Positions 6,361 through 64,000 of a stretch of 64,000 nucleotides of DNA are shown in pieces. The stretch comes from an uncultured delta proteobacterium. GTDB lineage: Bacteria; Desulfobacterota; Desulfobacteria; Desulfobacterales; SG8-13. The notes beneath the pieces are model-generated. The model was not told the origin of the DNA. It saw nothing but the letters and a program-made list of their open reading frames with translations, and did not search any database. The stretch spans positions 868,001-932,000 of the forward strand of contig CAWKCK010000003.1 of NCBI GenBank assembly GCA_963848135.1, given 5' to 3'. Within the stretch, counting starts at the first letter, position 1. Every line of letters starts with the position of its first letter. Position numbers and translations under genes: made by a program.

Positions 6361-6422
6361 CGGCATAAGTGGTTGGTGAAAAAACTTTCGAACTGCGATG
6401 TGTTTTTTTGGCAACCACCATA
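6361..6422 (+). repeat. Solo module-2 copy of the dispersed double-hairpin repeat
   Basis: ataagtggttggtgaaaaaactttcgaactgcgatgtgtttttttggcaaccaccata matches the second half of the copies at 46422 and 52746. Confidence 0.7.
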
Positions 6423-6710
6423 TAATTTTTCTAAGAATGATTTAGATCATTTTGATTGACACGGACGCACAGTTTTTTTAGTTTTAGAGTTCGAACAGGG
6501 GGAAAGAGTGTATTGCCACATCAACCGTATCGTTCAGCTTACCCGTGCGATACGGTCTCAGCCGATAAACGGGTGGCCATCGGTGATTCCATTTTCAAGC
6601 GCGAAAACACCGAAAGGCATCCGTTTGTCTATTTGCTACCTTTTTCCCTCAGCCATACGACCCGCGGGTGTCCAGCGATCTTGGCAAAAACCACAGACCG
6701 GAGTCAGCGC

Positions 6711-42088: not shown

Positions 42089-42357
42089 ACCGTAAATTCA
42101 AAGAAGAATCGTTGTTTCAAATAATTATAAAAAAACGCGCAGTCAACCGCCTGTGCGTCATGGTTGTCGTCGGTGCGGGTAATGGTCCAAAAAACTATTT
42201 TTAATTAGGACCGACATTTTTGTCAACTGCCACTCAATATTGCCTGGGTATAATTGCTTCCGCCAATGTGATAGGATCAAGCCAAAACAGCCGATGGTTC
42301 CATACCGCTTTGGACCAGCTGAATCTCCGACACCCTGGAGTTCCTTGCGCCCCTGTT

Positions 42358-42458
42358 TATACCGTTTCTCAAGCATAAATTCCGAACTACAGATATGGTA
42401 TATGTGGTTGCCGAAAAAAACGTTCGAATAACAGAATGTTTTTTAGACATCCACCATA
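42358..42458 (+). repeat. Dispersed double-hairpin repeat, copy A
   Basis: tataccgtttctc...ttccgaa...tggtata-tgtggttg...aaaaaaacgttcgaataacagaatgttttt...ccaccata. Confidence 0.85.
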
Positions 42459-42563
42459 ACGAGAATTCGAATGAAAGGGTCAACACCTCGGCGATCAGAT
42501 CGATATTTCAACTTGATTTTGACGCCTGCTGCGGCTAAGAATTAATAATGCAGCTTTGGTCAG

Positions 42564-43049: not shown

Positions 43050-43127
43050 CCCCCCGTAAAGTTCATGATTACTTTTGAGCCGTTCTGAGAAAATATAATA
43101 TCCGGCAGATATGATATGTTCTGCCCC

Positions 43128-43228
43128 TATCCCGCTTTTTAAAATTACATCTGAAATTCGGAAGGGTGATATAAGTGGCTTGTGAATTAAATGTTTAAAT
43201 GACGGAACGTTTTTTACAACCACGATTA
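43128..43228 (+). repeat. Dispersed double-hairpin repeat, copy B
   Basis: tatcccgctttt...gaaattcggaagggtgata-taagtggc...gacggaacgttttttacaaccacga. Confidence 0.8.
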
Positions 43229-44652: not shown

Positions 44653-44841
44653 GACATTATCTTGGAATCAGTATTGGTGTTGATTCTGCTTGTGAGAGCT
44701 TCGAACTGCAGTCCGCGCGATATCTCATTCATGCGAAACATGTCCGCCCAGTCAATTCTAATTCAATATGGATCGGACACTCAATGGGGCCATCGCGAAT
44801 TCTCGGCTGGGCACAAAACCGTTTTTGATTATTTGCCGAAA

Positions 44842-46359: not shown

Positions 46360-46421
46360 TATGCTTTTCCATGATTGCGGTTTATTCTCGAGCGCCTGCT
46401 GCTAAATAGTGTCCATCCACT

Positions 46422-46521
46422 TATACCGCTTTTCAATCATGAATTTCGAAATACGGAAGTGGTATCAGTGGTTGTGGAAAAAAACGTTCGAATAACGGAA
46501 CGGATTTTTGCAACCACTATA
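46422..46521 (+). repeat. Dispersed double-hairpin repeat, copy C
   Basis: tataccgcttttc...ggaagtggtatc-agtggttg...aaaaaaacgttcgaataacggaacg...caaccactata. Confidence 0.88.
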
Positions 46522-46553
46522 TAGCATATTTTTCGGGTTTCAGAGCCTGTGAA

Positions 46554-49500: not shown

Positions 49501-50681
49501 GCCATCAATTGCACATTAAGCCGGCCTTGCCGCTCGGGTGTGTCTATATTCTTTCCAACGAGAGAGAAATCTGCGTTGATATCACCGTCCCAGACAGCCA
49601 TGTTGTCAAGCGGCCAGACGGCCGGGTTCAGGTTGCGTATGGTGCCCTTCGTCTCCACTCCCATGCCAGTGCCGCCAAGGCCTGTCAGAAACCCCTCGGC
49701 TGTCAGGGACTGGCCTTCCAGTCCGAGTTTCAACCGGTGCTGCAACCGACTCTGTGTCCCCTGAAGATGGATATTGCCGGCGATACGGCCACTGTCAAAT
49801 GTCGAAAGTGAAAGCAGGCGCCCCAGTTCCGCCAGGGAGAGCGTTTTCATATTGACATCCAGGGTGATTTCAGGCTCCGGGCGATCCTGCAGCAGCTGTG
49901 CGTCCACAAGCAGCCGGGAGAACTCGGTCTCGATATTGACACCGCTTATTGTCAGGCGCTCATCAGTTTGATCGTAACTGATCCGCCCTTTGAGGCGAGT
50001 GAGTGTCAATCGGGGGTCATCCAGACGAAAAGCGAGGTGCCTGACATCGGCTTTAAGTACCTGGTCGGCCTCTATTGAGATGTCGAGTGCGATGTCATCG
50101 AATTGGCGGACCTGGGGCGGCTGTGCACTCGAATCGTCGATCCTCACAGATCCGTCCGTCACCGACAAACCTTTGACCAAAACCTTAAATGGCGTGCCGG
50201 TCTGTGGTTCTTCGGCAGGGGGGGGGGCCGAGGGGAAGATGTCGGCAATATTCCAGTTGCCGGCCGGTTTCCGGACGAGGTTGAGATGGAGTCCTTCGAT
50301 ACTTAGCCGGGTGATGACCACCATCCTTCTCAGCAGCATCGGCAGCTGATAGCCGATCGAAATCCTGTCGGCAGACAAAATAGTGCTTGCCGGGTCACCC
50401 AGGCGGACCTCTGCGATGGTCAGCGTGCTTAAGAGATTGCCTGAAATCTCTCCCAATTCGAGCGTAACACCCCATTGTCGTTCCAGCGTTTCGATGGCCA
50501 AGGTTTTAATGCGATATTGTACATACGGAACCCGAAGAATCGCATAACCGGCCAGGATCGATAATAAGATTGCGGCCGATCCGAAAAGTGCGATGCGAAT
50601 CATCGTTCCCTTGAGTCGAGGCCTCCCCGAAAGATCTTTTCGGTTCGGTCGGCCGGATTCGGCTTTGTTTCCATTGTCCAT
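46554..50681 (-). CDS. tamB: Translocation/assembly module TamB-like protein
   Basis: N-terminal TM anchor, beta-rich body, DUF490-type C-terminus (DPELDI.A, IISYLVFGR, GKYV, EYEL); follows an Omp85 gene. Confidence 0.85.
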   Translation of the reverse strand: MDNGNKAESGRPNRKDLSGRPRLKGTMIRIALFGSAAILLSILAGYAILRVPYVQYRIKTLAIETLERQWGVTLELGEISGNLLSTLTIAEVRLGDPASTILSADRISIGYQLPMLLRRMVVITRLSIEGLHLNLVRKPAGNWNIADIFPSAPPPAEEPQTGTPFKVLVKGLSVTDGSVRIDDSSAQPPQVRQFDDIALDISIEADQVLKADVRHLAFRLDDPRLTLTRLKGRISYDQTDERLTISGVNIETEFSRLLVDAQLLQDRPEPEITLDVNMKTLSLAELGRLLSLSTFDSGRIAGNIHLQGTQSRLQHRLKLGLEGQSLTAEGFLTGLGGTGMGVETKGTIRNLNPAVWPLDNMAVWDGDINADFSLVGKNIDTPERQGRLNVQLMASGLAGYRADEGVFNLTAENGTIVVSEAHLTGPGGSVRIAGRLEGVSETTAGLKAVIGGEIRNLDTDTLFPDLKLGGMINIDLQADAAGRLSATGPFDPADWTGNADLRLLPSALLAKEVHGGNLRAGWNGKTLQLKALNLQSAVGRAALQGHATFQPLTYKVGGKIVVEKLKETVLLLRDHVPRIPEDNLPDGRLDINGTWDGKLLQVEVFDLQTDAGYAVLKGHVSPQPLDYLIEGEAAVVELKKIAPLLSVLAPQLPVDQLPNGRFQIKGAAQGNNDRADIRATLNVEDLTHNDVTVASAQLDGDWQISGTAVTGRTEGYLTDIVYADMLFSKLDINVQLSPADVTADLKLAKDTGEQLQLAGQVAQWKQENRRIRIDRLKVTGITDPLSRLVTEISNPEPIIIETHPDSIDIDVFKLVAGPMLFRADGRLSREGSQGLRLSLTGLDLNQFAALWQEEPALQGVLTAEVELGGTGESPTIDAQVTVKNASGYEVSLSDLDLRLTYRDSTASLAGQGFLKGRKIFNIQGQSGLTLRLLPFELTPVPGSLQAKLVANDLKLSDLPNPLHRQVAIDGTVALQLLATGDLQRPQLTGFLTLQNGSLALPQANLTYESVQANLSLLPGKITIDKIELRGDREGALNLTGDILLTGFAPSSLNLHLTGHQAPIAWKRKITARIDPDISLTGELSSLVLTGHLRIPEGRVNLDRMIAGGPADIQVLGEQSGENQTIVLAQPQDDFLSTLTAKLTIEVPRNVWLRGQDLNAEISGTIELNKKPHGPFLLIGALNTIRGNYQFQSRRFEITRGNVEFQGLEEPDPELDIRAEAKIRDATIIIRITGSARMIELTLESEPMMDQADIISYLVFGRPTNELRSEQATDAQAAALNFAGRAAARELKSILGDTLAVDEIRIDPGEEDWRSGSLTLGKYVTRNIFMTYRMGFSSSSFGSVGIEYELNRNFSIEAEVGNEQSSGVDLIWKTDF

Positions 50682-50773
50682 GGTTGAAGGCTATCTATGG
50701 TTGTTCGATATATAGATCGTGATGGCCACCGGATATTGTCTTGACGGCGCTTATGACTTTTTTCAACGAATTG

Positions 50774-52735
50774 TTAAAATGCCTGCCCGATGTTCAGATA
50801 CACGCGCCAGCGGCCACCGACGATCTTATCCGGTTGTCCGATATCGCCGATGTCCTTTCCGGTCTGCGGATTGAGCTTATAGCCGAAGTCCACCCGAATG
50901 GGCCCAATGACCGTGTCGTATCGCAACCCGACGCCACAGGTGTATCGCGTGTCTGCGAAATCGAGCTGAAACGGCTCCATATCGAGCAATCCGGCGTCCA
51001 GGAAGGTGACGCCGGTTAATTCTTTGTACAAGGGAAATCTTGCTTCAAAGCTGGCATTGAAACCGGTTTGGCCGCCGATAGGATCGTCGTTTCTGTCCAC
51101 TGGCGGAAGTTTCTGGAAGTCGTATCCGCGTACCGTATCGCTGCCCCCCAGATAGAGGCGCTTGAAGGCCGGAATGTATGACGTGCCTTGAATTCCCTGG
51201 ATTGTTTCCAGTTTGATCCGTCCAGCCAAAACGATACTTTTAAATACTTGCTGGTACACTTTGGCTTCGATCGCGGGCTGGTAGTAGGCGAGTTCTGAAC
51301 CGAGAAATTCCGGGGATAGCTCAATTTTCGCTCCAAGATAAGACCCGGTTTTCGGGTTCAACAAGTCATTGCGGGAATCCCGGGCGATCTCCAGACCGAC
51401 AGAGGATATGCGCGTCGTTTGATCCAGGAATGGCAGTTCCCCGAGGTCCAGCGGTGCAGACGCCGCAACACTGTCCTCTTTATTAAAGGACAGACCGTAC
51501 TTCCCTTGCACGTACCAGTTGCGCGTGAGTTTACGGCTCAGGGCCGCTTCGACAAAAATTTTGTTATTTTTATAGGCCGGCGGTTCTTCCAGTTCGTTTC
51601 CGGCCCGGGCGGTCAGTGTGTTTTTAGCGTCTAAAAAATAGGGTTGAACGTACGTCAACTGGATGTTTCGCAGAATAGCGGAAATCCGTCCGCTCAAGCT
51701 CAGCCGTCCGCCTTGACCGGCCAGGTTTCGGTACGTCAACGCGGCTTGGAACCGTAGCTTGTCCTCGGTGCCGTAGCCGGCGCCGAAACGGACACTCCGG
51801 CGTTCTTTCGATCGAAGCCGGATGCTCATCGGAACCGGGTCGCCGCCTGTGGTCGGCGGTCTTTCGGGTTGAATGAGGGCGGTCCTGAAAACATCGAGCC
51901 TGATGAGATTGCGACGGCTGGTTTCGACCTTGCCGGTATTGTATCTCTCCCCCTCGCTGAATACCAGTGCCCGTCGGATGACTTTTTCAGAGACCTTGGT
52001 TCCGTCCTGGTTGATCGTGATCGGTCCGAAAACCGATAATGGACCCGTGTTGACACGAAATATTAGTTTGGCCTGATGGACCGTCGGATCGATAACGGCC
52101 TGGCCGGAAACCTCGGCAAAAGGATAGCCCCGGTTGCCAAGGCCACGGGTAAGGAATCTTTTCGCGTCCTCATAATCGGCAGTCCGGAATACCTGGCCCG
52201 GCTTCAGCGGCAATTCGGCCTCAAGGGTCGCCGGCAGCGTTTCATCTGAAGGTGGGCTGACATCGATATCGATCGATTCGACGATTACCGGTGGCCCTTC
52301 TACTACTGAGAATGATAGCTTCACACGGGGAAGATCGGGCGTCGGTGATTGATCCTCCTTTCTGCTGGCAGCAGTGTTTTGGCCGGATGGCCCCTCTTTT
52401 ACTGTTGCCCGGTCGGTCGGCTGGCTGATGATCGTGACCGATACCGCGGCCTCGGTACTGAAGTAGCCGTTATTGCGGTAGAATTGGCGGATGCGGTTAA
52501 GGTCGTCTTCAATATCTTCTTTTTCCAGACGGGGGCTGGGTTCCCAGAATTTCCAAATCGGTGGCGGCTGAGCGGCCAGCGTTTTGGCCAACTCCTTTTG
52601 CGATACAGAATCTACCCCGCTGAAATCAACCCCGATTAATTCAAATTTGTCAGGGATGTCGGTTCCATACAACATTTGGACCGGTAGAATCAGCAGGATC
52701 AACAACAGTAGGGCTGTTTTTGCAGTATGGGTCAT
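50774..52735 (-). CDS. tamA: Omp85-family outer membrane protein (TamA-like)
   Basis: Signal peptide, 3 POTRA-like units, GGSDTVRGY, GPIRVDFG, terminal IGQAF. Confidence 0.85.
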   Translation of the reverse strand: MTHTAKTALLLLILLILPVQMLYGTDIPDKFELIGVDFSGVDSVSQKELAKTLAAQPPPIWKFWEPSPRLEKEDIEDDLNRIRQFYRNNGYFSTEAAVSVTIISQPTDRATVKEGPSGQNTAASRKEDQSPTPDLPRVKLSFSVVEGPPVIVESIDIDVSPPSDETLPATLEAELPLKPGQVFRTADYEDAKRFLTRGLGNRGYPFAEVSGQAVIDPTVHQAKLIFRVNTGPLSVFGPITINQDGTKVSEKVIRRALVFSEGERYNTGKVETSRRNLIRLDVFRTALIQPERPPTTGGDPVPMSIRLRSKERRSVRFGAGYGTEDKLRFQAALTYRNLAGQGGRLSLSGRISAILRNIQLTYVQPYFLDAKNTLTARAGNELEEPPAYKNNKIFVEAALSRKLTRNWYVQGKYGLSFNKEDSVAASAPLDLGELPFLDQTTRISSVGLEIARDSRNDLLNPKTGSYLGAKIELSPEFLGSELAYYQPAIEAKVYQQVFKSIVLAGRIKLETIQGIQGTSYIPAFKRLYLGGSDTVRGYDFQKLPPVDRNDDPIGGQTGFNASFEARFPLYKELTGVTFLDAGLLDMEPFQLDFADTRYTCGVGLRYDTVIGPIRVDFGYKLNPQTGKDIGDIGQPDKIVGGRWRVYLNIGQAF

Positions 52736-52745
52736 CAGCCACTCT

Positions 52746-52849
52746 TATAGTGGTTGTCAAAAAAACGTTCCGTTATTAGAACGTTTTTTTATAACAATCA
52801 CTGATACCACCCTTTCGAATTTCGGAATGTATTATTAAAAAACGGTATA
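52746..52849 (-). repeat. Dispersed double-hairpin repeat, copy D (inverted)
   Basis: Reverse complement: tataccgtttt...ttccgaaattcgaaagggtggtatc-agtgattg...cgttctaataacggaacgtttttttgacaaccactata. Confidence 0.88.
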
Positions 52850-52908
52850 AACCGGTTTGAATCAGTCAACCGCCGACAAATGAGAACTTTGCATGGTTGG
52901 TGAGGGTA

Positions 52909-54282
52909 TTATCCCCGCGTGCGTGCTTTCCACCGCAGGATGTCGTAATAGGTTACAATTCGATCGACGTAGCGGACCGGTTCGTTTCCCCTTGCGTAGC
53001 CATAATTTGTCTGTCGATAGCACGCGGATTGACTTAGAAGCGGAAGTGCTCGCCTGAGAGCGATCCAGGTGTTGGGCTCAAAGCCTTTTTTCCGGGCGAT
53101 CTCCTGGGCGTCGCGCACGTGCCCGTAGCCGATGTTGTAGCTGGCCAGTGCGAAGAGCATGCGGTCGCTTCCGGGAATGTCTGCAAACAGATCATAAAGC
53201 CACTTGAGATACTTGATGCCGCCCGCAATGCTTTCAACCGGGTCTCGCCGGTCTTCGACGCCAATATCGCCGGCCGTTTCCAATGTCAGTTGCATGAGAC
53301 CCCGCACGCCAGTGTAGCTTATGGCTTCCGGGTCGAAATGGGATTCCTGGTAAATGAGTGCCGCTATAAGACGCCAGTCGAAATCATGGTAACGGGATTC
53401 GCGCATGATGACAGACCTGTAGGCCGGCAGCCGGGAGTCGACGCGTTCATGAAACTTTTTGAGGTCGAAGTAGTCAAACCGATCCCTGCCAGCATTATAC
53501 CTGTCTCGGATTTGGGCGAATTTCCCCTCTCTGGTGATTCGATCAAAAAACCCATTGATTATTCCGGCCAGCTCCCCGTCCCCCTTGCGTACAGCCCATC
53601 CCAAATGCTGGGGACCCGATATGGCAAAGGACTTTCGAATAACCGGGAAATACCGTCGGTTCAAATATGCCACATGAGAATCGGCGATGGTTATATCGAT
53701 ATCTTTTTCGGCCACACGGCGAAGCAACTCTTCAATCGTGACGTTTTTATGCGGTACGATCCGAATGTCGTAGCCCTCGTCATTCAACGCCAAAAGCCGT
53801 TGGTGGCCGGGTGTGCCCCAACCGATGTGGACTTTTTTGCCATTAAGGTCATCCACTGCCCGAATCGTGTGGTTGTCCATGTGGACGATCACATGTTTTG
53901 CCGTTTCCAGGTAGGCATCTGAAAAATCGACAAATTCCCGCCAATCGGTCAGCTGGGGAAGGCCGGCGGCGATGAAATCGCCTTTGCCGTCGTTCAGGGC
54001 GCCCAGCATCTTATCCCATCCCGGTGTGACCACCTGCAGGTCGACACCCAGATAGTCGGCAAACGCTTGGGCCAACTCATACTCGAAACCCGCCGGTCGC
54101 CGCCGATACTGGTAATAATTGTGGGCAGTGGTATCGGTGATCATGACAATTTGACCGGTATCCCATATCTGCTCCAGACGGCTCCGGGGTTTATCGCTGC
54201 AAGCCGTTGTGACAACGAACCATGCAAGCAGCAGTACCACCGGGGTTCGGTGAATGAAGTTATAATGACTTCGGCGTTTCAT
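52909..54282 (-). CDS. mltF: Membrane-bound lytic murein transglycosylase F
   Basis: SBP-3 domain (GFEYELA..FA) plus SLT domain (YQESHF, GLMQLT, ASYNIG.GH, GYARG.EP..YV). Confidence 0.92.
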   Translation of the reverse strand: MKRRSHYNFIHRTPVVLLLAWFVVTTACSDKPRSRLEQIWDTGQIVMITDTTAHNYYQYRRRPAGFEYELAQAFADYLGVDLQVVTPGWDKMLGALNDGKGDFIAAGLPQLTDWREFVDFSDAYLETAKHVIVHMDNHTIRAVDDLNGKKVHIGWGTPGHQRLLALNDEGYDIRIVPHKNVTIEELLRRVAEKDIDITIADSHVAYLNRRYFPVIRKSFAISGPQHLGWAVRKGDGELAGIINGFFDRITREGKFAQIRDRYNAGRDRFDYFDLKKFHERVDSRLPAYRSVIMRESRYHDFDWRLIAALIYQESHFDPEAISYTGVRGLMQLTLETAGDIGVEDRRDPVESIAGGIKYLKWLYDLFADIPGSDRMLFALASYNIGYGHVRDAQEIARKKGFEPNTWIALRRALPLLSQSACYRQTNYGYARGNEPVRYVDRIVTYYDILRWKARTRG

Positions 54283-54308
54283 CGCTAATCCGTGGATTCA
54301 GGGGGGGA

Positions 54309-55742
54309 CTATTCCGGCGGGGTTCTTTCTTTGACCGTGTAGAATACGGTAACAATGCGCTTTTCCCCGGATGCCAGCCTGAGTTTTGCCGGGTTGATCG
54401 CAAGCCCGACCTCGACAGAGCCGGAACGTTTAATCCCCTCTACCGAAACCTTTTCGGTATATATCGTTGTCTGGCTGTCGAGGTATTGACTGGCTCCGAT
54501 AACCTTGACGGCGGTTGGATCCGGACGGGCCTGGGTCAGAATCAATTTGTCGGACAGTGTACCCACCCAATCCACCTGCACGGGGAGCACTCTTTCAGTG
54601 GTGACATCGAGGGAAACCTCAATGAAAGACGGTTGGACGTCTTTCAGAATCACTCCCGGTGGCAGTGAGATGTCGTCCCTGGTTATGCTGAATGAATTCG
54701 GGCCAATAGATGCTCTGTTGAGATCCAGGCGGACGCGCAGCTGGTCGGGGCTGATGGATCTGAGCAGGGACCGCGAACCGCTGAGCTGCAGCTTGACGGT
54801 ATTGTCCGATGTTTCGACGATTTCCTGAGCAGAATCGCGGTTCCTGTATTCTACCGGCACGTCATAGGTTGCGAGTGTATCGAAGCCTCGTGTGATGCTG
54901 AACCATATTCCCAGGGTGAAGGCAATTGACAGAACAGACGCTAGGACGATTTCGATCCTATCATCCAACAGGTTTGAACGACTCCCCAGCCGCAGGCTGG
55001 TGTGATCCCGCAGCCTTTTTTCCAGGGTGGCCTGATTCTGAATGCCTTTGAGGCGACCGTTTTGGGCGATTGTTACGGTACCCCGTTCCTCGGATACGAG
55101 AATGATCAAGGCATCGGAGATTTCTGCCAGACCCAGGGCGGCGCGGTGGCGCGTCCCGTAATTTGACGGCAGGTCATCACGCATGGACAGAGGCAGAATA
55201 CATCCCACCTCTTCAATACGGCGGCCCCGAACGATGGCGGCGCCGTCATGAACCGGATTGTCGGGCCAGAATATGCTTAAAAGCATTTCCTTTGAAACCA
55301 TCCCCTGCCATTGCACGCCGTGCTGGACAATATCGCCCAGGTCGTCTTTTCCGGGGATAATGATCAGGGCACCGATATGGCGACGGGCCATTTCAAAGGC
55401 ACTGTCGGCAATATTTTCTATCGGCGTGGTTGTCTGCTTTTTCGGCAATTCCCACAGGATACCGCGAATATTCTTCGTCTGTAGTACGGCACGGATTTCG
55501 TTTCTGAAGACAACCACCACGATCAGAGCCGCGGCGGCGGTAACGCCCTGGGAGATCCAGCTTGAGACGATTAAGCCCATAGAGGTTGCCAGCCGCTGGG
55601 CAAACCAGATTAACGCCAGACCGAAGAGTACCCGCAAAACATTGGTTCCCCTGAACAGGATGTAGAACCGGAACAGCACATAGCTGTTCAGACCGATATC
55701 GATCACGTCCTGCCAGCGGATGTTGGCGAGAAAACCGTTCAT
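54309..55742 (-). CDS. dacA: Diadenylate cyclase CdaA fused to YbbR (CdaR-like) domains
   Basis: 3 N-terminal TM, HDGA and GTRHRAA catalytic motifs, VSEERG, extra TM, then YbbR-like repeats; start moved to ATG 55742. Confidence 0.88.
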   Translation of the reverse strand: MNGFLANIRWQDVIDIGLNSYVLFRFYILFRGTNVLRVLFGLALIWFAQRLATSMGLIVSSWISQGVTAAAALIVVVVFRNEIRAVLQTKNIRGILWELPKKQTTTPIENIADSAFEMARRHIGALIIIPGKDDLGDIVQHGVQWQGMVSKEMLLSIFWPDNPVHDGAAIVRGRRIEEVGCILPLSMRDDLPSNYGTRHRAALGLAEISDALIILVSEERGTVTIAQNGRLKGIQNQATLEKRLRDHTSLRLGSRSNLLDDRIEIVLASVLSIAFTLGIWFSITRGFDTLATYDVPVEYRNRDSAQEIVETSDNTVKLQLSGSRSLLRSISPDQLRVRLDLNRASIGPNSFSITRDDISLPPGVILKDVQPSFIEVSLDVTTERVLPVQVDWVGTLSDKLILTQARPDPTAVKVIGASQYLDSQTTIYTEKVSVEGIKRSGSVEVGLAINPAKLRLASGEKRIVTVFYTVKERTPPE

Positions 55743-55756
55743 TGAATTCACATAGC

Positions 55757-56218
55757 CTAATCGATGATGCTGAAACGCTGCGTACTCAGAATATTGCCTT
55801 CCTCGTCGGTCACCTCGACCCGCCAAGGTCCTTTGTCCGAACTGCGGAGCTCCATGGCGCTGTATGTTGACCATCGTGACGGTCGTAGCACCAGTTTTAT
55901 GCTCGCCTTGAGATTGTCCCTGAAGTACCAATTGTGAAAGGTAAACGTCTTTTCCGGCACACTGGTGAAGTTGGTGTAACAGTAGACCCGTTTTAGGGAA
56001 ATCGAAAAGGCCTCGGCCTTGTTTTCCGGAATCCCGCTCACGACGTTTTCGCAGATCGCCGTGGCGCCAAGAGCCAATTTCTTGGGTGCCGCCGGCGGTA
56101 CTACTGGTGGCTCTTGGGCTGCCTGGCCCAGGGCGATAGCGGGCAGGAGAAACATAATGAGAAGAATGACCGCGTATAATCTACTGAAATATTTCACGGC
56201 AATGACCCTCTCGAACAC
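55757..56218 (-). CDS. DUF2914-like exported protein
   Basis: Signal peptide; VYCYT, H.WY, RW.TYS, GPWRVEV. Confidence 0.75.
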   Translation of the reverse strand: MFERVIAVKYFSRLYAVILLIMFLLPAIALGQAAQEPPVVPPAAPKKLALGATAICENVVSGIPENKAEAFSISLKRVYCYTNFTSVPEKTFTFHNWYFRDNLKASIKLVLRPSRWSTYSAMELRSSDKGPWRVEVTDEEGNILSTQRFSIID

Positions 56219-56328
56219 TTGCAGGATTGGCTTTTATGAGCATCGTTGACAGGCATCAATACATCACGAAACCCGGTTTCGATCAAGGAGATTCAGTCGC
56301 TAAACAATTGATATGCCTGGGCCAGTAT

Positions 56329-57180
56329 CTACCAGTGAGGCTGGTTGCCGATCCGGTAGCCCATAACCTCCAGGGTTTCGGTTATCACGACAAATGCGCT
56401 GGGGTCGATTTTCCGGATGATTCCCTTGAGTCGAGCGAGTTCTCGTAAGGTAATTACCGTATAAATTATCTGGGTCTCCTTGCCTGAATAACCGCCCTTG
56501 CCGGTGACGACCGTCACACCTCTCAGCAGTTTTGAAATGATCTGTCGGTTGATTTCGGCCCAATGAGTTGAAATGATCATAACGGCCTTGCGTTGGCTCA
56601 ATCCAGTGACCACCAGGTTGAGGATCTGAGAAGTGACGTACATGAAAACCAGGGAATACAAGGCTATTTCCAGGGAAAACCGGGAGGCAGCGAAAAAAAG
56701 TAGACAGATGTTGAAGGACAGGATGGTGGAACCAAGGCGGATTGAATAACGTTTCAAAATCATAACTGACAGAATGTCCAAGCCACCGGCCGATCCTTTC
56801 GAGCGAAGAATCAGGCCCGATCCGATGCCGGTAAGAATCCCGGCGAATAGAGCGGCGAGGAGGTTGTCTTGAATGTGAAATTTTGGAATCGGCAGCATCA
56901 AGGCCAGAGATAATGCGGCCATTCCCGCCAGACTGTACCAGAAGAATCGCCGGCCGATCGCCAGCCATCCCAAGGCAAACAACGGTATATTCATCAGAAA
57001 ATAGAGCACCCCCACCGGCAGAGCCGGAAACAAGTAAGAGACTATGAGAGCCAGACCGGTGATCCCGCCGCTGATAAATTCGTTGGGAATCAAGATGCCG
57101 TTAATCGCTGCTGCGCAGATGACACTGCCGATGCTGATCAGGATCAGGTTGAGGCCGATCTCTTTAAACAATTTTTTCAT
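56329..57180 (-). CDS. YitT family membrane protein (C-terminal DUF2179)
   Basis: GGITGLA, NIPLF, GS.GGLDI, RGVT...G.G.YSG, IDP.AF. Confidence 0.9.
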   Translation of the reverse strand: MKKLFKEIGLNLILISIGSVICAAAINGILIPNEFISGGITGLALIVSYLFPALPVGVLYFLMNIPLFALGWLAIGRRFFWYSLAGMAALSLALMLPIPKFHIQDNLLAALFAGILTGIGSGLILRSKGSAGGLDILSVMILKRYSIRLGSTILSFNICLLFFAASRFSLEIALYSLVFMYVTSQILNLVVTGLSQRKAVMIISTHWAEINRQIISKLLRGVTVVTGKGGYSGKETQIIYTVITLRELARLKGIIRKIDPSAFVVITETLEVMGYRIGNQPHW

Positions 57181-57187
57181 TGTGTTT

Positions 57188-57290
57188 TCTACCGCTTTTC
57201 AGAGATATATTCCGAAATATGGAAGGGTGGTATAAGTTGTTGTAAAAAATAACCTTCGAATAGCGGAACGTTATTTTGAAAACTACTATA
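57188..57290 (+). repeat. Dispersed double-hairpin repeat, copy E
   Basis: taccgcttttc...ttccgaaatatggaagggtggtata-agttgttg...aaaataac...gttatttt...aactactata. Confidence 0.85.
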
Positions 57291-57301
57291 ACATTGTATG
57301 G

Positions 57302-58372
57302 TCATGGTCGATTGACCCGGGCGCCCAGGCCCGGATTATTATTTGGGTACAGAATACCGTTTCGCAGAACCACAGATCCGGCCGCCGGATCGGCTATCAA
57401 ATCCAGGTGGCCGTCAAGGTCGGCATAAACCACGTTGGGCCGCGCGAGAGCGAAGTGCAGTCCGGCGGCAATGGCGAGCGCGGACTCGTCCATGCAACCC
57501 ACCATCACTTCCAGATTCGCGGCGCTTGCAATGGCATTGATTTTCATGGCTTCATAAATCCCACCGACCTTCATCAGCTTGATATTGGCCATGTCTACCA
57601 CATCGTTCTTGGCCAGGCGAAAAGCATCCCCAACATTCATCAGACTTTCGTCGGCCATTACGGGTATCGGCACCTTTTCGGTGATTCGTCCAAGGATGGC
57701 ATGACTCGCCTTCGGCGTCGGCTGTTCCAGTAGCGCCAGCTTGGCCTTGCGTGTTTCCGCCACGAACGTTAGGGTATCTCTTTCGTTAAAGCCTTGATTG
57801 GCGTCAAAACGCAGTTCGACGGCACTGCCGACGGCCTCGCGGATTTTCAATATTTTTTCGATATCGACGGCAACGTCGATACCCCCTTTGATCTTCAGAG
57901 TCCTGAAACCCGCAGCGACGTGTTTGCGGGCTTTTTCAACCGTCTGTTCGATGGGCAGAATCCCGATGGTGATGCTGGTCTTTATCCGGGTACGGTAACC
58001 GCCGAGAAGACGATAAAGCGGGATGCCGGCGATCTGGCCGAGCAGGTCGTAAAGCGCCATATCCACCATAGCCAGGGCGGCCGGCTGCTGGCCGAGACCG
58101 GCGCGCAGTCGCTCGAGGATCAATGCATAACGCAGCGGATCGATCCCGGACAACATCGGCGCAATAGTGGCATCGAATGCGGTCATGACCGACGCGGGCG
58201 TTTCCCCGGTGACTTGAAAATCCGGAGCCGCACAGCCATGACCGATCAGGCCCTGGTTGGTTTCGATCCGTAGAAAAATATTGGTCACCGCGTCGGTGGT
58301 TTCGTAGGCAATGGTGTATGGCTCGGACAGGCGCATCTCCACCGGCCAGGCGTAGACCTGTTGGATTTTCAT
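57302..58372 (-). CDS. Enolase-superfamily dipeptide epimerase / N-acyl amino acid racemase (AEE/DgcA-like)
   Basis: KIK, DANQG, EQP, DES, NIKLMK, GCM.ES, DLD motifs. Confidence 0.88.
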   Translation of the reverse strand: MKIQQVYAWPVEMRLSEPYTIAYETTDAVTNIFLRIETNQGLIGHGCAAPDFQVTGETPASVMTAFDATIAPMLSGIDPLRYALILERLRAGLGQQPAALAMVDMALYDLLGQIAGIPLYRLLGGYRTRIKTSITIGILPIEQTVEKARKHVAAGFRTLKIKGGIDVAVDIEKILKIREAVGSAVELRFDANQGFNERDTLTFVAETRKAKLALLEQPTPKASHAILGRITEKVPIPVMADESLMNVGDAFRLAKNDVVDMANIKLMKVGGIYEAMKINAIASAANLEVMVGCMDESALAIAAGLHFALARPNVVYADLDGHLDLIADPAAGSVVLRNGILYPNNNPGLGARVNRP

Positions 58373-58373
58373 T

Positions 58374-60863
58374 TTAGTATCGCCGATGATAGATATCGTC
58401 CAGGGTCATGTTTTTAAGATCTTCCACCAGAGCCACCAAATGGGCCACCATGGTTTCCCAGATGCGCTCACCCTTTACCGCACTGGCTTTGGTCGGGTCT
58501 CCCATGACGCCGCTGGTCGATATTTTCTGCGTATGGGCGTACCAGAGTATGCCCCTTTTGCCGGTGAAGTTCAGATAGCGACTGGAAAACTCCGGAACCG
58601 AGCGGACGGCCCGGTCCATTTTAACCAGATTGGCGCGGACGGCCAGTGAAGTGCTGGTCTCGATTTCGCCGGCATGGACATCGTTGGGGGTATCCGTCAA
58701 CCGGCTGATGTCCACATCGCTGGTTTCGCCGGTGTCAACGCAGACAAAGATGTGCGCGTCGCGGTTGATCATCTGGGCGGCATAGTTCAATGCCGGGCTG
58801 TTACCGCCGTGACCGTTGATGATCACCAGTTTTTTAATCCCGTTGTGGGCCGCACTGAGACCGACCTCGTAGACCAGGCGGGAGAGGACATCGTTGCTGA
58901 TACTGATGGTCCCCTTGAAATCTTCATGATGGTATGACACCCCGTAAGGAATAAGGGGTAGAACAACCGGTACCGGAGAACTGCATGCCATCGCCACCCG
59001 TCGTGCCAGGTAATCGGCATCGAATGCATCGGTATCCAGTGGCAAGTGGGGACCGTGCTGTTCGATGGCCCCCACCGGCAGCAGCGCAATGTCCATTTCA
59101 CCCAAGCGCTTTTCGGCTTCCTGCCACGTGAGTTCTCCCCAAAGAAAACTGACCGCCGGGGAAGAGCTCGAGGTGTCGTCCTTGTGTCGGTGGTTCGAGT
59201 TGAAATCGAGTTCAAAAGGATACGGGGTCAGAATCTCGGCCGATACTGACGGTATGAATTCCTGCCACGCTTTTCCCTTACGGGTGACTGCGCCGATACC
59301 ATGGGAGCGAAGAAGACTGTAGAGAGGCAGACGCAGGTCAACCGGGATCGCATCCATGGGTGAATACTTCGGATCGAAGCGCATACTCATGATTTCCTGG
59401 TGCGGTTTGAATTCGGGTGCCGGTGCACCGGCCTTACCGATCAACCCTTTGGTCAGCAGCAGATGACCAAGGTGTTCCGCGCCCGCCGGTTCCTGGTGTA
59501 TCCCGGATGTATCGAAAGCCTCCAGGCAGGCCTGTATCTGACGGTCGTTATATCCACAGTGCTGGGGGGCGGCGTCGATAGCCATCAGCATACTGATGAT
59601 GCGGCGGCATTTTTCACATTTACCGCAGGGCTTGATCCGATCGTCTTCCTTGTGGGCGGAATGGCAGGATACCTGGTGTTCCTGAAGTTGAGGGTATCGC
59701 TCGGTCAGAACTTTCTGAATCAACAGTTCGGAAAGGGGACGCAGAACCGAGAATTGGCTCAGTGACCATCCTTTACGCATGTAGTAGCGGGAAAGGGACG
59801 TGTCAAAAAAAACGCTTTGATCGTATAAACCGGAATAGTGCCGGATACCTTTAAATGAGGTTCGGACCGAGGTATCGAATTCGTCTCCGATGAGGATGCG
59901 CCCTATTTTCCTTTTCCTGACCAGTGGAAGGATTCCGAACAGGAAGACAGCGACGGTCCAAAGTCGAATGGGGTACATGTCCGAGCGGATACTGGCGTGG
60001 TTCTGCCGGACAAAAGGCAGGTGTTGCAGCATCCAGTTAAAAACACGGTCCGAATTGACCCAGACCCGGGCCGTGTTGGGCACATGCTCGCGGAAATGAC
60101 GGTAGGTGTTGAGCGCCGTAAACCAGTGGCGGCCGGATTCATTGACGAACACCGGGTGAACTTCGTGTTCGATTTCGTTCAGGAGGCCATAGGTCAAAAG
60201 GCTGTCTTTGCCGCCGCTGGAAAGGATGCAGTGCCGGTGCTTCTCGCTTGGCCACAGATTCCAGGCTGTTTTCGGTGCTTTTTCGGGTGCTGCGACGAAC
60301 GCAATCGATGCCCGGCAGTATTTACTCTTTTTCTCCGGCGGCATCCGGGCGGTTTCTCCCCTTAGAAACGGGTTGGGGCTCAATATCTTATTGACATAGA
60401 TCTCCCGGGCCGTGTTTTCGGCCATATCCCGCAGGAACTGCCGGTCAATATCGTCATAGGTCCCCCGAAAAACGATGGAGCGGCAGAAGAGACCGTAATT
60501 CAAGGCCACCTGGGCAGCCACCAAACTCGCCAGGTTCCATGATTCGGGCTCCGCTGGATCGAAAACATTTTCTTCATAGGAATAGATCAACTCGGTGCGG
60601 TTTTCGGTGCCGTTACAAACCACTGTGTATGCTGCCGTCAATCGACGCGGTTCAAGTTTAATCGGCCCGACGACCAGCTTGTCGATGACTTTAAGGGCGG
60701 AGAGGGTGTCGGTCGAGGAAGAGGCCGACGGCACAGATTTCTCATTTTGGGATGGGGGCTGTTTTGGGGGCATTAATTTATCCGAAAGTCCGTTAATTTT
60801 GATTAATCGGGTGGTGTTCGGCACCATGGGTACGAGAACTTGAATCCGGGAAGACACGGTCAA
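58374..60863 (-). CDS. Fusion: MurL/QueC-like PP-loop ATPase plus creatininase-family amidohydrolase
   Basis: N-terminal SSGGKDS, FSVLRPLSEL, SCH, CGKCEKC; C-terminal GAIEQHGPHLP..TD, NGHGGN, HAGEIETS; start may be 60773. Confidence 0.8.
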   Translation of the reverse strand: MTVSSRIQVLVPMVPNTTRLIKINGLSDKLMPPKQPPSQNEKSVPSASSSTDTLSALKVIDKLVVGPIKLEPRRLTAAYTVVCNGTENRTELIYSYEENVFDPAEPESWNLASLVAAQVALNYGLFCRSIVFRGTYDDIDRQFLRDMAENTAREIYVNKILSPNPFLRGETARMPPEKKSKYCRASIAFVAAPEKAPKTAWNLWPSEKHRHCILSSGGKDSLLTYGLLNEIEHEVHPVFVNESGRHWFTALNTYRHFREHVPNTARVWVNSDRVFNWMLQHLPFVRQNHASIRSDMYPIRLWTVAVFLFGILPLVRKRKIGRILIGDEFDTSVRTSFKGIRHYSGLYDQSVFFDTSLSRYYMRKGWSLSQFSVLRPLSELLIQKVLTERYPQLQEHQVSCHSAHKEDDRIKPCGKCEKCRRIISMLMAIDAAPQHCGYNDRQIQACLEAFDTSGIHQEPAGAEHLGHLLLTKGLIGKAGAPAPEFKPHQEIMSMRFDPKYSPMDAIPVDLRLPLYSLLRSHGIGAVTRKGKAWQEFIPSVSAEILTPYPFELDFNSNHRHKDDTSSSSPAVSFLWGELTWQEAEKRLGEMDIALLPVGAIEQHGPHLPLDTDAFDADYLARRVAMACSSPVPVVLPLIPYGVSYHHEDFKGTISISNDVLSRLVYEVGLSAAHNGIKKLVIINGHGGNSPALNYAAQMINRDAHIFVCVDTGETSDVDISRLTDTPNDVHAGEIETSTSLAVRANLVKMDRAVRSVPEFSSRYLNFTGKRGILWYAHTQKISTSGVMGDPTKASAVKGERIWETMVAHLVALVEDLKNMTLDDIYHRRY

Positions 60864-60899
60864 GCGGGATGGCAGACACAGGTCAACTGTCTCAACCGT

Positions 60900-61976
60900 C
60901 TACGCTTTGAGGTGAGCGTTGAGAATCCGGACAAGACCCTCGGGCCCACCCCGCAGCACGTCGAAGGTCGGCAATCCGATCGCTTTCTCAAAGGCTGAGC
61001 AAACCGGGCCGATTTCGTCCGGTTTGAGGTCCTCGTGGTTGACCGTTACGGCAACGACAGGTTTTCCGCTAAGCATTTCGATGACCTGAATCTGGCGGCC
61101 CAGGGGGTGGATCCGGTATCCGGGGAATCCGTCATATTCGCGGCGGGCCGGTGCATGTTGAAGGACAACCAGATCCGGTCGGCCGGCGGCCAGGATTTCA
61201 AATCCGCCCGGATAGGCCGGGTTCATCAGGCTGCCCTGGCCCTCAATAATGATAACCTCCGGGTGCGCATCCGTCCATGCCGTGCATATCGCATGTTCGA
61301 TCTCACCGGAAACGAAGTCGTTGATCAGTGAATCCATAATGATACCATACTTCGCCCCTTGCATCCAGGCTGTTTGACCGGTGCCGATCATCAGTGCGTT
61401 GATGTTCATATCCGTAAATCCCTGGACGATGCGCCAGGCGGTGGTGCGTTTGCCGACTGCGGAATCGGTACCCAGAACCGCTATTTTCAAGGACGTTACG
61501 GTTTCGATTTTGCCACTGAAAAAATGGAGCGATCTGCGATCTGGCGGTCGACGGATATCCCGGATCAAAGCGCCAGTATTAGTGGCAATATCAGATAGTT
61601 CTGTGTCATCTGACAAGAAGTCGTGCAAGCCGCTGTCGACATTGAGCCCCAGTTCCAGGGCCCTTTTTATGTCCAATCGGGCCGTGGGTGCCAGACGACC
61701 GCCGTCCGGCGCGAGGCCGACCACCAGATGGGTTGCCGGCGTTCCGGTAGAATTCGCTGAATTCACAGCCTCTTCGATGGATGCCTCGACGGGTATTCCG
61801 TTGGGTTTGCCGTCTATAATTTCCCCGGCGTCCTGGCCGGTATAGCGGGAATCGATGACTGCGATGACCCGGTAGCGGTTGGTGAACCGGACAAGGCCAT
61901 GGGCGGTTTTACCGTTTGGGGTGTTGAGTGCACCTTCGCAGTAGACAATGGCAGTGCCGTCAATAGGGCTCGTCAT
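60900..61976 (-). CDS. DUF1611 family protein (DgcN-like)
   Basis: KTAHGLVR, GLHDFL, GTDSAVGKRTT, TGQT, DFVSG..E, EGQGSL..PAY. Confidence 0.85.
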   Translation of the reverse strand: MTSPIDGTAIVYCEGALNTPNGKTAHGLVRFTNRYRVIAVIDSRYTGQDAGEIIDGKPNGIPVEASIEEAVNSANSTGTPATHLVVGLAPDGGRLAPTARLDIKRALELGLNVDSGLHDFLSDDTELSDIATNTGALIRDIRRPPDRRSLHFFSGKIETVTSLKIAVLGTDSAVGKRTTAWRIVQGFTDMNINALMIGTGQTAWMQGAKYGIIMDSLINDFVSGEIEHAICTAWTDAHPEVIIIEGQGSLMNPAYPGGFEILAAGRPDLVVLQHAPARREYDGFPGYRIHPLGRQIQVIEMLSGKPVVAVTVNHEDLKPDEIGPVCSAFEKAIGLPTFDVLRGGPEGLVRILNAHLKA

Positions 61977-63091
61977 GATTTTCTCCCGGTGAGTACAACG
62001 ACATAGCGGTCGTTGGAAAGCGGTTCTTGCCGGTGCTGTTCAATCAAAGCGATCAAGCCGGCAGTTGATGCCGGCAAAACCTGTAAACCTTCTTTGTCGC
62101 GGATGAGCTTCGTGAAGGTCAGCATGTTTTTGTCGGTGGCATCGCTGGCCCAACCGTTGGTGGATCGAATGGCCTCCAGGGCATATTCGCCGTCAACGGA
62201 ATGCCAGTTGATCAGCGGTTCGTTGACGACGGTTTCCCGGATTTTCTGCGGATTGAGATCTTCACAGGATGCGGCTTTTTTCACGAACGCCTGAATAATG
62301 GGGTTTTTCTTGTGGGAAGATCCCGCGACAATTCTCGGCATGCGGGAGGTTTTCCCTCGGCGATAGAGGCTCAGAAACCCCTTGTAAATGCCGGTAATGG
62401 TTGTTCCGTTGGAGACCGGTACGGCCACCACAAGCGGTGCGTCCCTCAGGTCGTCATAGATTTCTTGAGCAATCTGGCCATAAGCCCGCAGCTGCAGGAC
62501 AACGTTGTCCCCACCGGGGTTGGCGTCATATATCTCTTCTTGCTGGGCCCGCTGTCTGGAGTATTCCACCGCGTTTTCATAGGAGCCGGGAACACGAATG
62601 ATCTCGGCGCCCATGCCCGTCATCTCCTCGATACGCTTGGTGTGGAACGAATCGGGTATGTAAATCAGACAGTGTAAACCGGCCAATGAACAGGCCAAAG
62701 CCATGGCAGCGCCGTAGTTCCCACAAGTCGCGACCGTGATGGCATCATATCCACGTCGAAGCGCATCCATGGCCTGAGCGAAAGCGATCCGGTCCTTCTG
62801 TGTACCGGTGGGGTTGCCGCCTTCAAACTTGAGATAGATTTGGCGCAGGCCCATTTCTCGTTCAATATTGCGGGCCCGAACCATGGCGGTGTCTCCGACC
62901 TCCGAGTCGATAATGTCTTCGTAAGCCTCGAGCCTCTCTTCGACGGGTCTGCCGGGATCTTCTGCGATTTTTCTCAGCTCTTCGACCGCCCGGGCAACAT
63001 CGAACGCCTCGCCCGTCGCCCCGTCCAGGATATTGCGGGGGCGATCACTTATCGGGACTTCCTGCATATCGTGGGCTTGTTCGTCTTTCAT
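61973..63091 (-). CDS. PLP-dependent fold-type II enzyme (threonine synthase-like)
   Basis: K.EG.NPTGTQKDR, ATCGNYG, VPVSNGTT, C-terminal VVVLTG; aggag RBS. Confidence 0.85.
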   Translation of the reverse strand: MKDEQAHDMQEVPISDRPRNILDGATGEAFDVARAVEELRKIAEDPGRPVEERLEAYEDIIDSEVGDTAMVRARNIEREMGLRQIYLKFEGGNPTGTQKDRIAFAQAMDALRRGYDAITVATCGNYGAAMALACSLAGLHCLIYIPDSFHTKRIEEMTGMGAEIIRVPGSYENAVEYSRQRAQQEEIYDANPGGDNVVLQLRAYGQIAQEIYDDLRDAPLVVAVPVSNGTTITGIYKGFLSLYRRGKTSRMPRIVAGSSHKKNPIIQAFVKKAASCEDLNPQKIRETVVNEPLINWHSVDGEYALEAIRSTNGWASDATDKNMLTFTKLIRDKEGLQVLPASTAGLIALIEQHRQEPLSNDRYVVVLTGRKS

Positions 63092-63157
63092 GGGACTCCT
63101 TACCCGGTTTCTCCTTATCGTTCGGCTGTTCGGTCCCGCCGGCCGCAGGATGTTTTA

Positions 63158-63261
63158 TATCGTGGTTGTTAAAAAAACGTTCCGTTATGCGGACATTTTT
63201 TTCCTGACATCACTTATACCACCTTACCATATTTCGGAATTTATTTTTGATAAGTGGATAA
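63158..63261 (-). repeat. Dispersed double-hairpin repeat, copy F (inverted)
   Basis: Reverse complement: ttatccactt...ttccgaaatatggtaaggtggtata-agtgatg...taacggaacgtttttttaacaaccacgata. Confidence 0.85.
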
Positions 63262-63383
63262 ACGCCGCTCGGGTCGACACCTACTCCCAGGACCGATATT
63301 CGGCCGATTCATACACGCGTCACCCAAAGGGCTGACATGGTTGGATCTGATATCAAATTATGCTGAAAAAGGCTATCGGATGA

Positions 63384-63398
63384 TGGCATGCATTTTGC
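63384..63398 (+). promoter_or_regulatory. Putative sigma-54 (-24/-12) promoter
   Basis: TGGCAT-GCATT-TTGC with exact GG-N10-GC spacing. Confidence 0.55.
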
Positions 63399-63509
63399 CT
63401 TATATTTAAATGCGGTCACCGAATTGCAACGGCAGCGACAATGTCAGGTTGACCGGTCGTATGCGCAATATAATTGTTTTCCGAACTTCTGGGACGCCCT
63501 TAGCGTGAA

Positions 63510-63718
63510 ATGGTCCATATTCATGGCATCATCGTACCGGTGAAGTGGGACGAAAGGGGTAAAATCGCCGGTCTCGGTATCGAAACTTTCTGATCGACCA
63601 ACAGTCGTAGAGTTACGACCTGACAGTACTGATTCAGGAATCGGTGGAACTTGGCGGTGAACTCGCGCGGGAATCCGTAAACAAAATTATCAGTGTGATA
63701 GAGGTGCGAAGACTTTAA
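63510..63718 (+). pseudogene. Small hypothetical protein, frameshifted with an internal stop
   Basis: MVHIHGIIVPVKWDERGKIAGLGIETF*, continues in another frame LIDQQS*...LIQESVELGG. Confidence 0.4.
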
Positions 63719-63828
63719 GCCGCCGGTTGAGACTTCGGCCCGCTATCTCGGGTCACTGGCCCCACCTAATTTTATAGGCTGCTGTTCGTCGCGCCCTTGC
63801 AGCCGTCCGCGTTTTGCCAAGCCCCTTA

Positions 63829-63874
63829 TATACCGCGTTTCAAAAATAATTTCCGCAATAGGCAAGGATGGTAA
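63829..63874 (+). repeat. Solo module-1 copy of the dispersed repeat
   Basis: tataccgcgtttcaaaaataatttccgcaataggcaaggatggtaa. Confidence 0.65.
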
Positions 63875-64000
63875 TGGACGTGTTTTTGACGGGTGCCAAC
63901 GTACTGGCGGTAAAAGAAATACTTGAAAAACCTGTCCGCTGCATGGAAATGGTCGATTATAATTATCGGCTGGCTTTGCGGCATTTCGCCGATATCGGCC

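Follow-up and report, generated by a model that had tools for sequence, protein, structure and literature searches.

What might a compact set of four genes, kept together across many uncultured sediment lineages, be for? The question is raised by a 64,000-nucleotide stretch of DNA (hereafter the window; contig CAWKCK010000003.1 of assembly GCA_963848135.1, positions 868,001 to 932,000) from an uncultured delta proteobacterium of the Desulfobacterales lineage SG8-13. At positions 57,302 to 63,091 it carries a minus-strand cassette encoding a pyridoxal phosphate (PLP) enzyme of fold type II, a DUF1611 protein, a fusion of a PP-loop domain to a creatininase-family domain, and an enolase-superfamily epimerase homologue. 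A preliminary description, made from the letters of the window, had centred the cassette on D-glutamate or peptide stereochemistry. Here, the four genes are found to form one conserved cassette. Our leading answer, a tentative one drawn by analogy with known enzymes, is that the cassette may first assemble and later break down a small dipeptide-like amide of the cytoplasm, one residue of which is D-configured and probably basic, of the lysine, ornithine or diaminobutyrate type.

Conservation of the cassette in bacteria

A scan of species genomes returned at least 584 related stretches, of which the best 80, the closest relatives, were fetched; the 51 loci with at least 3.5 kb of upstream and 3 kb of downstream sequence were counted, and 29 were too short. 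Three bacterial loci share one assembly, and the counts overstate independence to that extent. The order PLP-DUF1611-PP-creatininase-epimerase was kept in 43 of the 51 loci. The creatininase domain was absent from one locus and the epimerase from one, and one locus held the PP-creatininase gene alone, with the PLP and DUF1611 genes on another contig. Titles of the best 80 loci named Desulfobacterales, other deltaproteobacteria, Ignavibacteria, Bacteroidales, Gemmatimonadota, Aminicenantes, Zixibacteria, Planctomycetota, Calditrichota, Acidobacteriota, Krumholzibacteriales and Clostridia, and cultured Desulfosarcina species also carry the cassette (L052, L057, L067). When 301 genomes of the phylum were sampled without bias, PRK06381, the family of the PLP enzyme, occurred in 8 of them, the PP family in 9 and DUF1611 in 9; all eight PRK06381 genomes carried the PP family and seven of them DUF1611. 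The genes therefore do occur together elsewhere, as the preliminary description had required of a common pathway.

Rates of non-synonymous to synonymous substitution (dN/dS) against one congener were 0.13, 0.18, 0.20, 0.08 and 0.20 for the five modules of the cassette, the fusion being compared with locus L205. The genes are real and under purifying selection, and their conservation goes beyond chance because dN/dS lies at 0.08–0.20 and gene order is kept across phyla. In congeners L207 and L208 (genomes G006 and G007) the fusion gene is frame-broken, once and several times, respectively, through decay or assembly errors.

All four minus-strand open reading frames (ORFs) lay where the preliminary description had put them and belonged to the families it had named, with Pfam matches to PALP, DUF1611 N and C, creatininase (residues 577–813) and MR_MLE N and C. 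Also present were the ATGA overlap between the PLP and DUF1611 genes (61976–61973) and the 1-bp gap before the epimerase gene. The 36-bp gap described ahead of the fusion gene exists only for a TTG start (60863–58374, 829 aa). Most of the 120 best homologues listed measure 785–810 aa and congeners have 799-aa fusion ORFs from the same ATG; because homologue starts align with ATG 60773, this is likely the true start, and the gap is likely 126 bp. The features are collected in Table 1.

Literature searches found no paper on this cluster, most subscription journals and supplements being outside their reach. The parts come from known superfamilies, and as far as these searches extend the combination and the PP family are undescribed. 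The earlier proposal of an undescribed, conserved pathway with D-amino-acid chemistry was in this respect supported: its genes co-occur and no described cluster was found.

Table 1. Features of the cassette and of the repeat family in the window (coordinates are window positions)
Feature	Position	Strand	Remarks
PLP fold-type II enzyme, PRK06381 family	61973..63091	-	372 aa; PALP; PLP Lys99, Cys123
DUF1611 protein, distant DgcN homologue	60900..61976	-	358 aa; Rossmann-like and P-loop domains; below DgcN cut-off
Two-domain fusion	58374..60773	-	799 aa from ATG 60773; in-frame TTG at 60863
Fusion, N-terminal part: putative unmodelled MurL/QueC-like PP-loop adenylating domain	59205..60773	-	from sequence and predicted structure
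SGGxDS loop of PP-loop domain	~60218-60201	-
Four-Cys Zn motif of PP-loop domain	~59666-59607	-
Fusion, C-terminal part: creatininase-family binuclear-metal amidohydrolase domain	58425..59135	-	Pfam, motifs
Enolase-superfamily dipeptide-epimerase homologue	57302..58372	-	356 aa; MR_MLE N and C
Dispersed intergenic repeat copy, ~110 nt	57181..57294	+	incidental to cassette
Second copy of the same dispersed intergenic repeat	63151..63265	-	opposite orientation; incidental to cassette
Repeat copies in window	6356-6425, 42347-42466, 43126-43228, 46414-46525, 52739-52856, 57181-57294, 63151-63265, 63822-63873

A core shared with archaeal-type loci

A profile-free search of 50% representatives for the PP family gave 437 matches, including stand-alone proteins of 457–523 aa (25–48% identity) and a DUF1611-PP fusion protein (P0128). 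Several distant members were named Thermoplasmatota or NC10. Single proteins of the family depart further: in P0127, a single record on a 3.4-kb contig, the PP domain is fused to an S-adenosylmethionine (SAM) methyltransferase domain, and two members that may be inactive paralogues, P0136 and P0229, have lost SGGxDS together with some of the Cys motif.

A metagenome scan with the distant group yielded 80 loci, 28 of which had enough flanking sequence to be counted. These are called archaeal-type on the basis of named homologues, archaeal housekeeping neighbours, a tree (83 sequences, rooted on one distant sequence, FastTree support values) and an Atlas cluster (67% Archaea); L131 among them looks bacterial. 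PLP-DUF1611-PP was found in 24 of the 28, DUF1611-PP in three and PP alone in one. Creatininase was found in none of the 80 archaeal-type loci. A convergent RimI-like GNAT gene was detected in 19/28, and an M14-like hydrolase with the epimerase in 11/28, the epimerase standing beside the M14-like gene in all 11. PLP enzymes of bacterial and archaeal-type loci were mostly 63–72% identical, which fits one fixed substrate. PLP-DUF1611-PP is the core of the system; the creatininase or M14-like hydrolase and the epimerase are accessory and likely serve maturation or turnover.

Upstream of the epimerase, locus L108 (5787-5948) and 12 other archaeal-type loci have a short ORF for a zinc-ribbon protein whose C-terminal tail is acidic; the ORF bears a loose likeness to carrier proteins such as LysW and may simply reflect synteny within one clade.

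The PP-loop domain

No Pfam model matched the PP-loop domain, and there was no PF06508 match at E 0.1. The NCBIfam MurL model (NF041275) scored 18–19 bits on it against a cut-off of 700 and matched 12 of 24 PP-family members weakly (best E 7e-10). Atlas language-model features placed MurL nearest to homologue P0169 (0.96). The proposed link to MurL held in that MurL is the nearest named family by hidden Markov model and by language-model features. A true MurL was sought in 301 genomes for residue comparison and none was found; the control matched nowhere either.

The structure of the domain was predicted with a pLDDT (predicted local distance difference test) of 91. Its best folds were QatC (E 3e-6, template-modelling score 0.38), Cap9 (Z 13.0, root-mean-square deviation (rmsd) 2.6, 178 residues aligned) and QueC (Z 12.8, rmsd 3.0, 189 aligned), followed by the sulfur-inserting PP-loop enzymes NcsA, TtuA, YcfA and LarE (Z 8.9–9.3); a search of solved structures with the PP profile reached E 0.09 at best. 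Protein P0003 has SGGxDS at residues 216–221 and C-x12-C-x2-C-x2-C at 400–419, that is, the loop and the four-Cys zinc type that belong to the QueC motif definitions in the main text of PMC13329287. The fold, the loop and the zinc motif are thus shared with QueC, QatC and Cap9. Unlike those proteins, the first Cys spacing is 12 instead of 8, extra N- and C-terminal domains are present, no deazaguanine or defence genes are conserved nearby, and the QueC substrate motifs YxQxHxxE, VPxRN and YPDC were not found in the PP domain. According to the same main text, QueC, Cap9 and QatC form amides, QatC and Cap9 ligating to protein N-termini; it has no mention of creatininase, MurL, epimerase or threonine synthase, and its supplements, with cluster lists, could differ.

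With MurL the domain shares an ATP-binding loop and a Cys cluster. It differs in being fused to creatininase or DUF1611, in having no MurD2 neighbour, and in occurring in archaeal-type loci and in genomes with MurI. MurL converts ATP to AMP in a one-way epimerisation of the C-terminal residue (PMC8788868 and PMC5808125, in the text available), and the available part of PMC8788868 pairs it with MurD2 in genomes without another source of D-glutamate. On its predicted structure, the PP domain is an unmodelled QueC-fold relative of MurL. By analogy, it would adenylate a carboxylate and then form an amide or invert a centre.

A second, KamA-linked context

In genome G200 (L197:2-3717; G200:C89), a KamA-like aminomutase gene cut by the contig end, an ATP-grasp gene, a divergent PP-family gene and a GNAT gene form a co-directional run without PLP or DUF1611 genes. 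Elsewhere the cassette adjoins a separate, uncharacterised cluster: a radical SAM gene of the KamA family, two genes resembling D-Ala-D-Ala ligase and a fusion of deacetylase and GNAT (L028:10456-16426, L086:1-4139). Single ATP-grasp genes lie next to the cassette in L068 and L201. No longer fusions scored in the KamA-linked branch, in a weak search. The G200 run looks biosynthetic and lysine-linked, and by analogy it hints that peptide-like products derived from basic amino acids are what the PP family acts on; it may represent a second pathway that draws on this enzyme family.

The PLP enzyme

The PLP enzyme passed PRK06381 only (438 bits, cut-off 266). On the ThrC model TIGR00260 it scored 112 against a cut-off of 167, and another gene, on contig C3, scores 190 and passes. 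The PRK06381 "threonine synthase" model tracks this cassette. Cys123 is present in 102/103 homologues. It aligns with Ser84 of human serine racemase through L188, a serine-racemase-like protein of the window's genome (E 3e-95 to the S. pombe enzyme). In the available text of PMC6424897, Ser84 is the re-face base, and its loss abolishes racemisation. The enzyme thus resembles serine racemase in having a nucleophile at the re-face position opposite PLP Lys99, a feature that is necessary, not sufficient, for a racemase. In contrast to threonine synthase and serine racemase, it has Cys there in place of Ser or Thr. Tyr126 and Gln200 align with Thr88 and Arg160 of T. thermophilus threonine synthase, which we take to be phosphate ligands. 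Cys123 may be regarded as a lead to racemase or D-specific chemistry, not as proof of it, a sulfur-carrying role being the alternative. Identity with OrtB, an ornithine thiolase, was rejected: the GNYG motif is shared, and local identity is only 27–33%.

The DUF1611 protein and the hydrolase domain

The DUF1611 protein aligned with the solved structures 2G0T, 2OBN and 7XRJ. It scored 143 bits on the DgcN model against a cut-off of 480, and an archaeal-type homologue scored 171. DgcN and DgcA constitute a catabolic route from D-glutamate to L-glutamate (PMC12363236 and PMC10845958, in the parts available). The cassette resembles that route in that a single locus encodes both a DUF1611 protein and an isomerase of the enolase family, with P-loop and Rossmann domains aligning with 7XRJ at E 2e-28. 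In contrast to it, both proteins score far below the equivalog cut-offs, the two genes are not adjacent, two further enzymes lie in a tighter core, and the epimerase pocket is acidic instead of having Arg24.

The creatininase domain matched PF02633 at E 6e-71. Glu601, His603, Asp612, His685, His730 and Glu735, presumably the metal ligands, were each conserved in at least 95% of 74 homologues. The best NCBIfam model was MftE (160, cut-off 172), and the creatininase model scored 101 against 235. As in creatininase, MftE, ArfB and IolN, the EQHG, Asp, NGH and HxGxxET motifs are kept; unlike those enzymes, the domain is below all four cut-offs and fused behind an adenylating domain, and the Tyr-Glu that follows NGH in creatininase is Gly-Gly here. 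A deacylase role, as initially suggested, is plausible for this domain; a place in the core is not, given its absence from the archaeal-type loci.

The epimerase

The closest solved relatives of the epimerase are the dipeptide epimerases 3JVA, 3RIT and 1JPM. Lys162, Lys265, Asp190, Glu216, Asp241, Asp318 and Asp320 were present in 77/77 full-length homologues, and Asp51 in 75/77; Asp295 was found in 57/57 bacterial sequences and Asn in 20/20 archaeal-type ones. Position 24 was Glu in 70, Gln in three, Asp in two, Gly in two and Arg in none. The DgcA model gave 154 bits against a cut-off of 400. In the B. subtilis enzyme, Arg24 binds the Glu side-chain carboxylate and Asp321/Asp323 the alpha-ammonium group, as stated in the available part of a simulation study citing the crystal structure (bioRxiv 2022.05.01.490185). 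The cassette epimerase has the catalytic Lys pair, metal ligands and DxD motif in common with the dipeptide epimerases of B. subtilis (YkfB), E. faecalis (3JVA) and M. capsulatus (3RIT); it differs from them in having Glu for Arg24 and no peptidoglycan-peptidase neighbours. Because the DxD motif is kept in 77/77 homologues and position 24 is never Arg, the likely substrate carries a free alpha-amine and a side chain that is not acidic and is probably basic. The second-best solved relative, 3RIT, which shares the MDES and DLDG motifs, is a cationic-dipeptide epimerase acting on Arg-Lys.

A proposed pathway and its alternatives

Read in gene order, the cassette would act in five steps. An amino acid X would be made or racemised by the PLP enzyme, whose Lys99 and Cys123 lie on opposite faces (step 1), and the amine of D-X would be acylated by the DUF1611 protein, in the manner of DgcN with D-glutamate (step 2). 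The MurL/QueC-like domain would then adenylate a carboxylate (ATP to AMP and PPi) and trap it with an amine to give an amide or, alternatively, invert a centre as MurL does (step 3). Deacylation or cleavage of the amide would fall to the creatininase domain, or to the M14-like hydrolase in archaeal-type loci (step 4). Last would come the epimerase, acting on a dipeptide whose alpha-amine is free and whose C-terminal side chain is basic (step 5). Steps 1–3 would form the core, with steps 4 and 5 as accessories that likely serve maturation or turnover. By analogy alone, the product would most likely be a solute with a protective or osmotic role. A bolder version, which we consider more doubtful, would see an ancient pathway of sediment bacteria and Thermoplasmatota making a D-configured lysine-type dipeptide solute, with a new Cys-dependent PLP racemase (PRK06381) and a new MurL/QueC-fold peptide-bond ligase re-usable with a beta-amino-acid aminomutase and an ATP-grasp enzyme.

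Several observations weigh against this proposal. All five reactions are assigned by analogy. Step 2 is not always encoded in the locus, DUF1611 and epimerase being jointly absent in 5/51 bacterial loci. In one locus (L042:4558-4600) DUF1611 has been deleted cleanly in frame, its first residues now beginning the PP-creatininase gene; a second DUF1611-epimerase pair occurred elsewhere in only two of four reduced-locus genomes tested (39–42% identity). Thirteen of the 28 archaeal-type loci have PLP-DUF1611-PP with no epimerase or M14-like gene nearby, and four more are without these genes and without the PLP gene too. As regards the PLP enzyme, the nearest folds of its model are threonine synthases (Z 36.8, rmsd 2.3, 304 aligned), ahead of maize serine racemase (Z 31.4), and two enzymes that are not racemases, cysteine synthase and threonine synthase, have Ser and Thr, respectively, at the re-face position. 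The epimerase relative 3RIT itself has Arg24, which means that the preferred charge is not fixed by position 24 alone. The KamA context is a single locus; no second G200-type layout was found in 21 genomes of the same order, and the window's genome has no homologue of the ATP-grasp genes in question. Finally, the hosts are mostly sediment heterotrophs, which salvage would fit equally well.

Salvage of D-amino acids is the alternative that survives best, although we think it unlikely. DUF1611 would acetylate a free D-amino acid, the MurL-like domain would invert the N-acyl-D-residue via an adenylate, the hydrolase would deacetylate it to the L-form, the epimerase would take L-D dipeptides, and the PLP enzyme would racemise or deaminate a D-amino acid. 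The D-to-L direction of the DgcN-DgcA route, the ATP-dependent inversion by MurL described above, a hydrolase fused to or beside the pathway genes and hosts among sediment bacteria and Thermoplasmatota all agree with it. However, no transporter or regulator is conserved, two epimerases, one driven by ATP and one independent of it, would partly duplicate each other, the tightest link joins PLP with PP (8/8), not DUF1611 with the hydrolase, and the KamA/ATP-grasp context of one branch looks biosynthetic.

Improbable, in our estimate, is a sulfur-insertion pair in which Cys123 would carry cysteine sulfur to the PP-loop enzyme, an adenylated carboxylate or amide becoming a thiocarboxylate or thioamide. 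Thioguanine is made by a PLP/PP-loop sulfur pair, and the near-invariance of Cys123, the co-occurrence of the two genes and the sulfur-inserting enzymes among the next structural matches point in this direction. The four-Cys motif, however, is of the QueC zinc type and not of the LarE three-Cys Fe-S type, QueC-type folds score clearly higher (Z 12.8–13.0), and DUF1611 and the epimerase would be left unexplained.

Modification of a protein or peptide, in which the PP domain would join an activated acid to a carrier peptide or to the end of a protein, the GNAT would acetylate and the hydrolase would release a product as MftE or LysK does, is in our view quite improbable. It would agree with the ligation to protein N-termini by QatC and Cap9, the best structural matches, with the peptidase MftE as best creatininase model, with the RimI-like nature of the archaeal-type GNAT, and with the acidic-tailed zinc-ribbon ORF near the epimerase in 13 archaeal-type loci. 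Dipeptide epimerases, on the other hand, act on free dipeptides, the archaeal-type ORFs may be plain synteny, and the bacterial cassette has no conserved small ORF within or beside it. On this last ground a carrier or precursor peptide was rejected for the bacterial loci.

The original centre of interest, synthesis, modification or recycling of D-glutamate or muropeptides, for instance in place of MurI, is now very improbable, despite MurL being the nearest named family, the absence of a MurI over cut-off from the window's genome and the presence of MurI in 4/15 carriers versus 33/46 non-carriers among 61 relatives. That skew comes mostly from one genus (0/7 versus 4/9 inside it, 4/8 versus 29/37 outside), in tests that are descriptive, kin being non-independent. 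Against a D-glutamate role stand the position-24 residue of the epimerase, never the Arg of L-Ala-D/L-Glu epimerase (0/77), the scores far below the DgcN, DgcA and MurL cut-offs, the lack of a mur gene or Mur ligase as conserved neighbour, and the presence of the core in archaeal-type loci; Thermoplasmatota have no peptidoglycan. Replacement of MurI in particular was rejected: MurI is present in 18/30 carrier genomes tested and missing from several non-carriers, and a D-amino-acid aminotransferase homologue (262–270 bits, cut-off 277) occurs in the window's genome and in two of three MurI-less non-carriers tested.

In the window's genome (G000) this homologue lies at C17:742555-743367. G000, G363, G001, G056 and many others of the genus have no MurI over cut-off, the aminotransferase homologue being the likely source of D-glutamate; G049 has neither at these scores.

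Flanking repeats and neighbouring genes

The repeats said to bracket the cassette do exist, as an inverted pair, but they belong to a genome-wide family and are incidental to it. The family is AT-rich and intergenic, about 110 nt long, found in both orientations and similar to miniature inverted-repeat transposable elements or repetitive extragenic palindromes; it counted 148 matches in the window's genome in a first pass and 193 in a second. In the fetched loci the repeat matched those of its own genome only, with no match in loci of other genomes, and a role as mobile or regulatory frame of the cassette was accordingly rejected. An Rfam scan of window positions 56000-64000 and a plasmid search gave no match, and promoter and terminator counts were at chance level. 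Among sequencing runs no RNA data set containing it was listed, which speaks neither for nor against.

No conserved transporter, regulator, or carrier or small peptide was found around the bacterial cassette in the 80 loci; its commonest neighbour was a YitT-type membrane gene (13/80). Downstream, at 43252-57180 of the window, runs a series of genes for a YitT-type membrane protein, a DUF2914 protein, a diadenylate cyclase with YbbR domains, an MltF-like lytic transglycosylase, a TamA/TamB-like pair, a starch-synthase-like glycosyltransferase and a sigma-54 regulator, parts of which recur next to the cassette in Desulfobacterales only.

Implications

Uncultured sediment lineages commonly carry the cassette, for which no product has been described. 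As a set of four soluble cytoplasmic enzymes it is directly testable. Its solution would assign a function to an unmodelled family with the MurL/QueC fold and correct the "threonine synthase" label of PRK06381; it would also widen the scope of DUF1611 past D-glutamate and reveal D-amino-acid chemistry in archaea that have no peptidoglycan.

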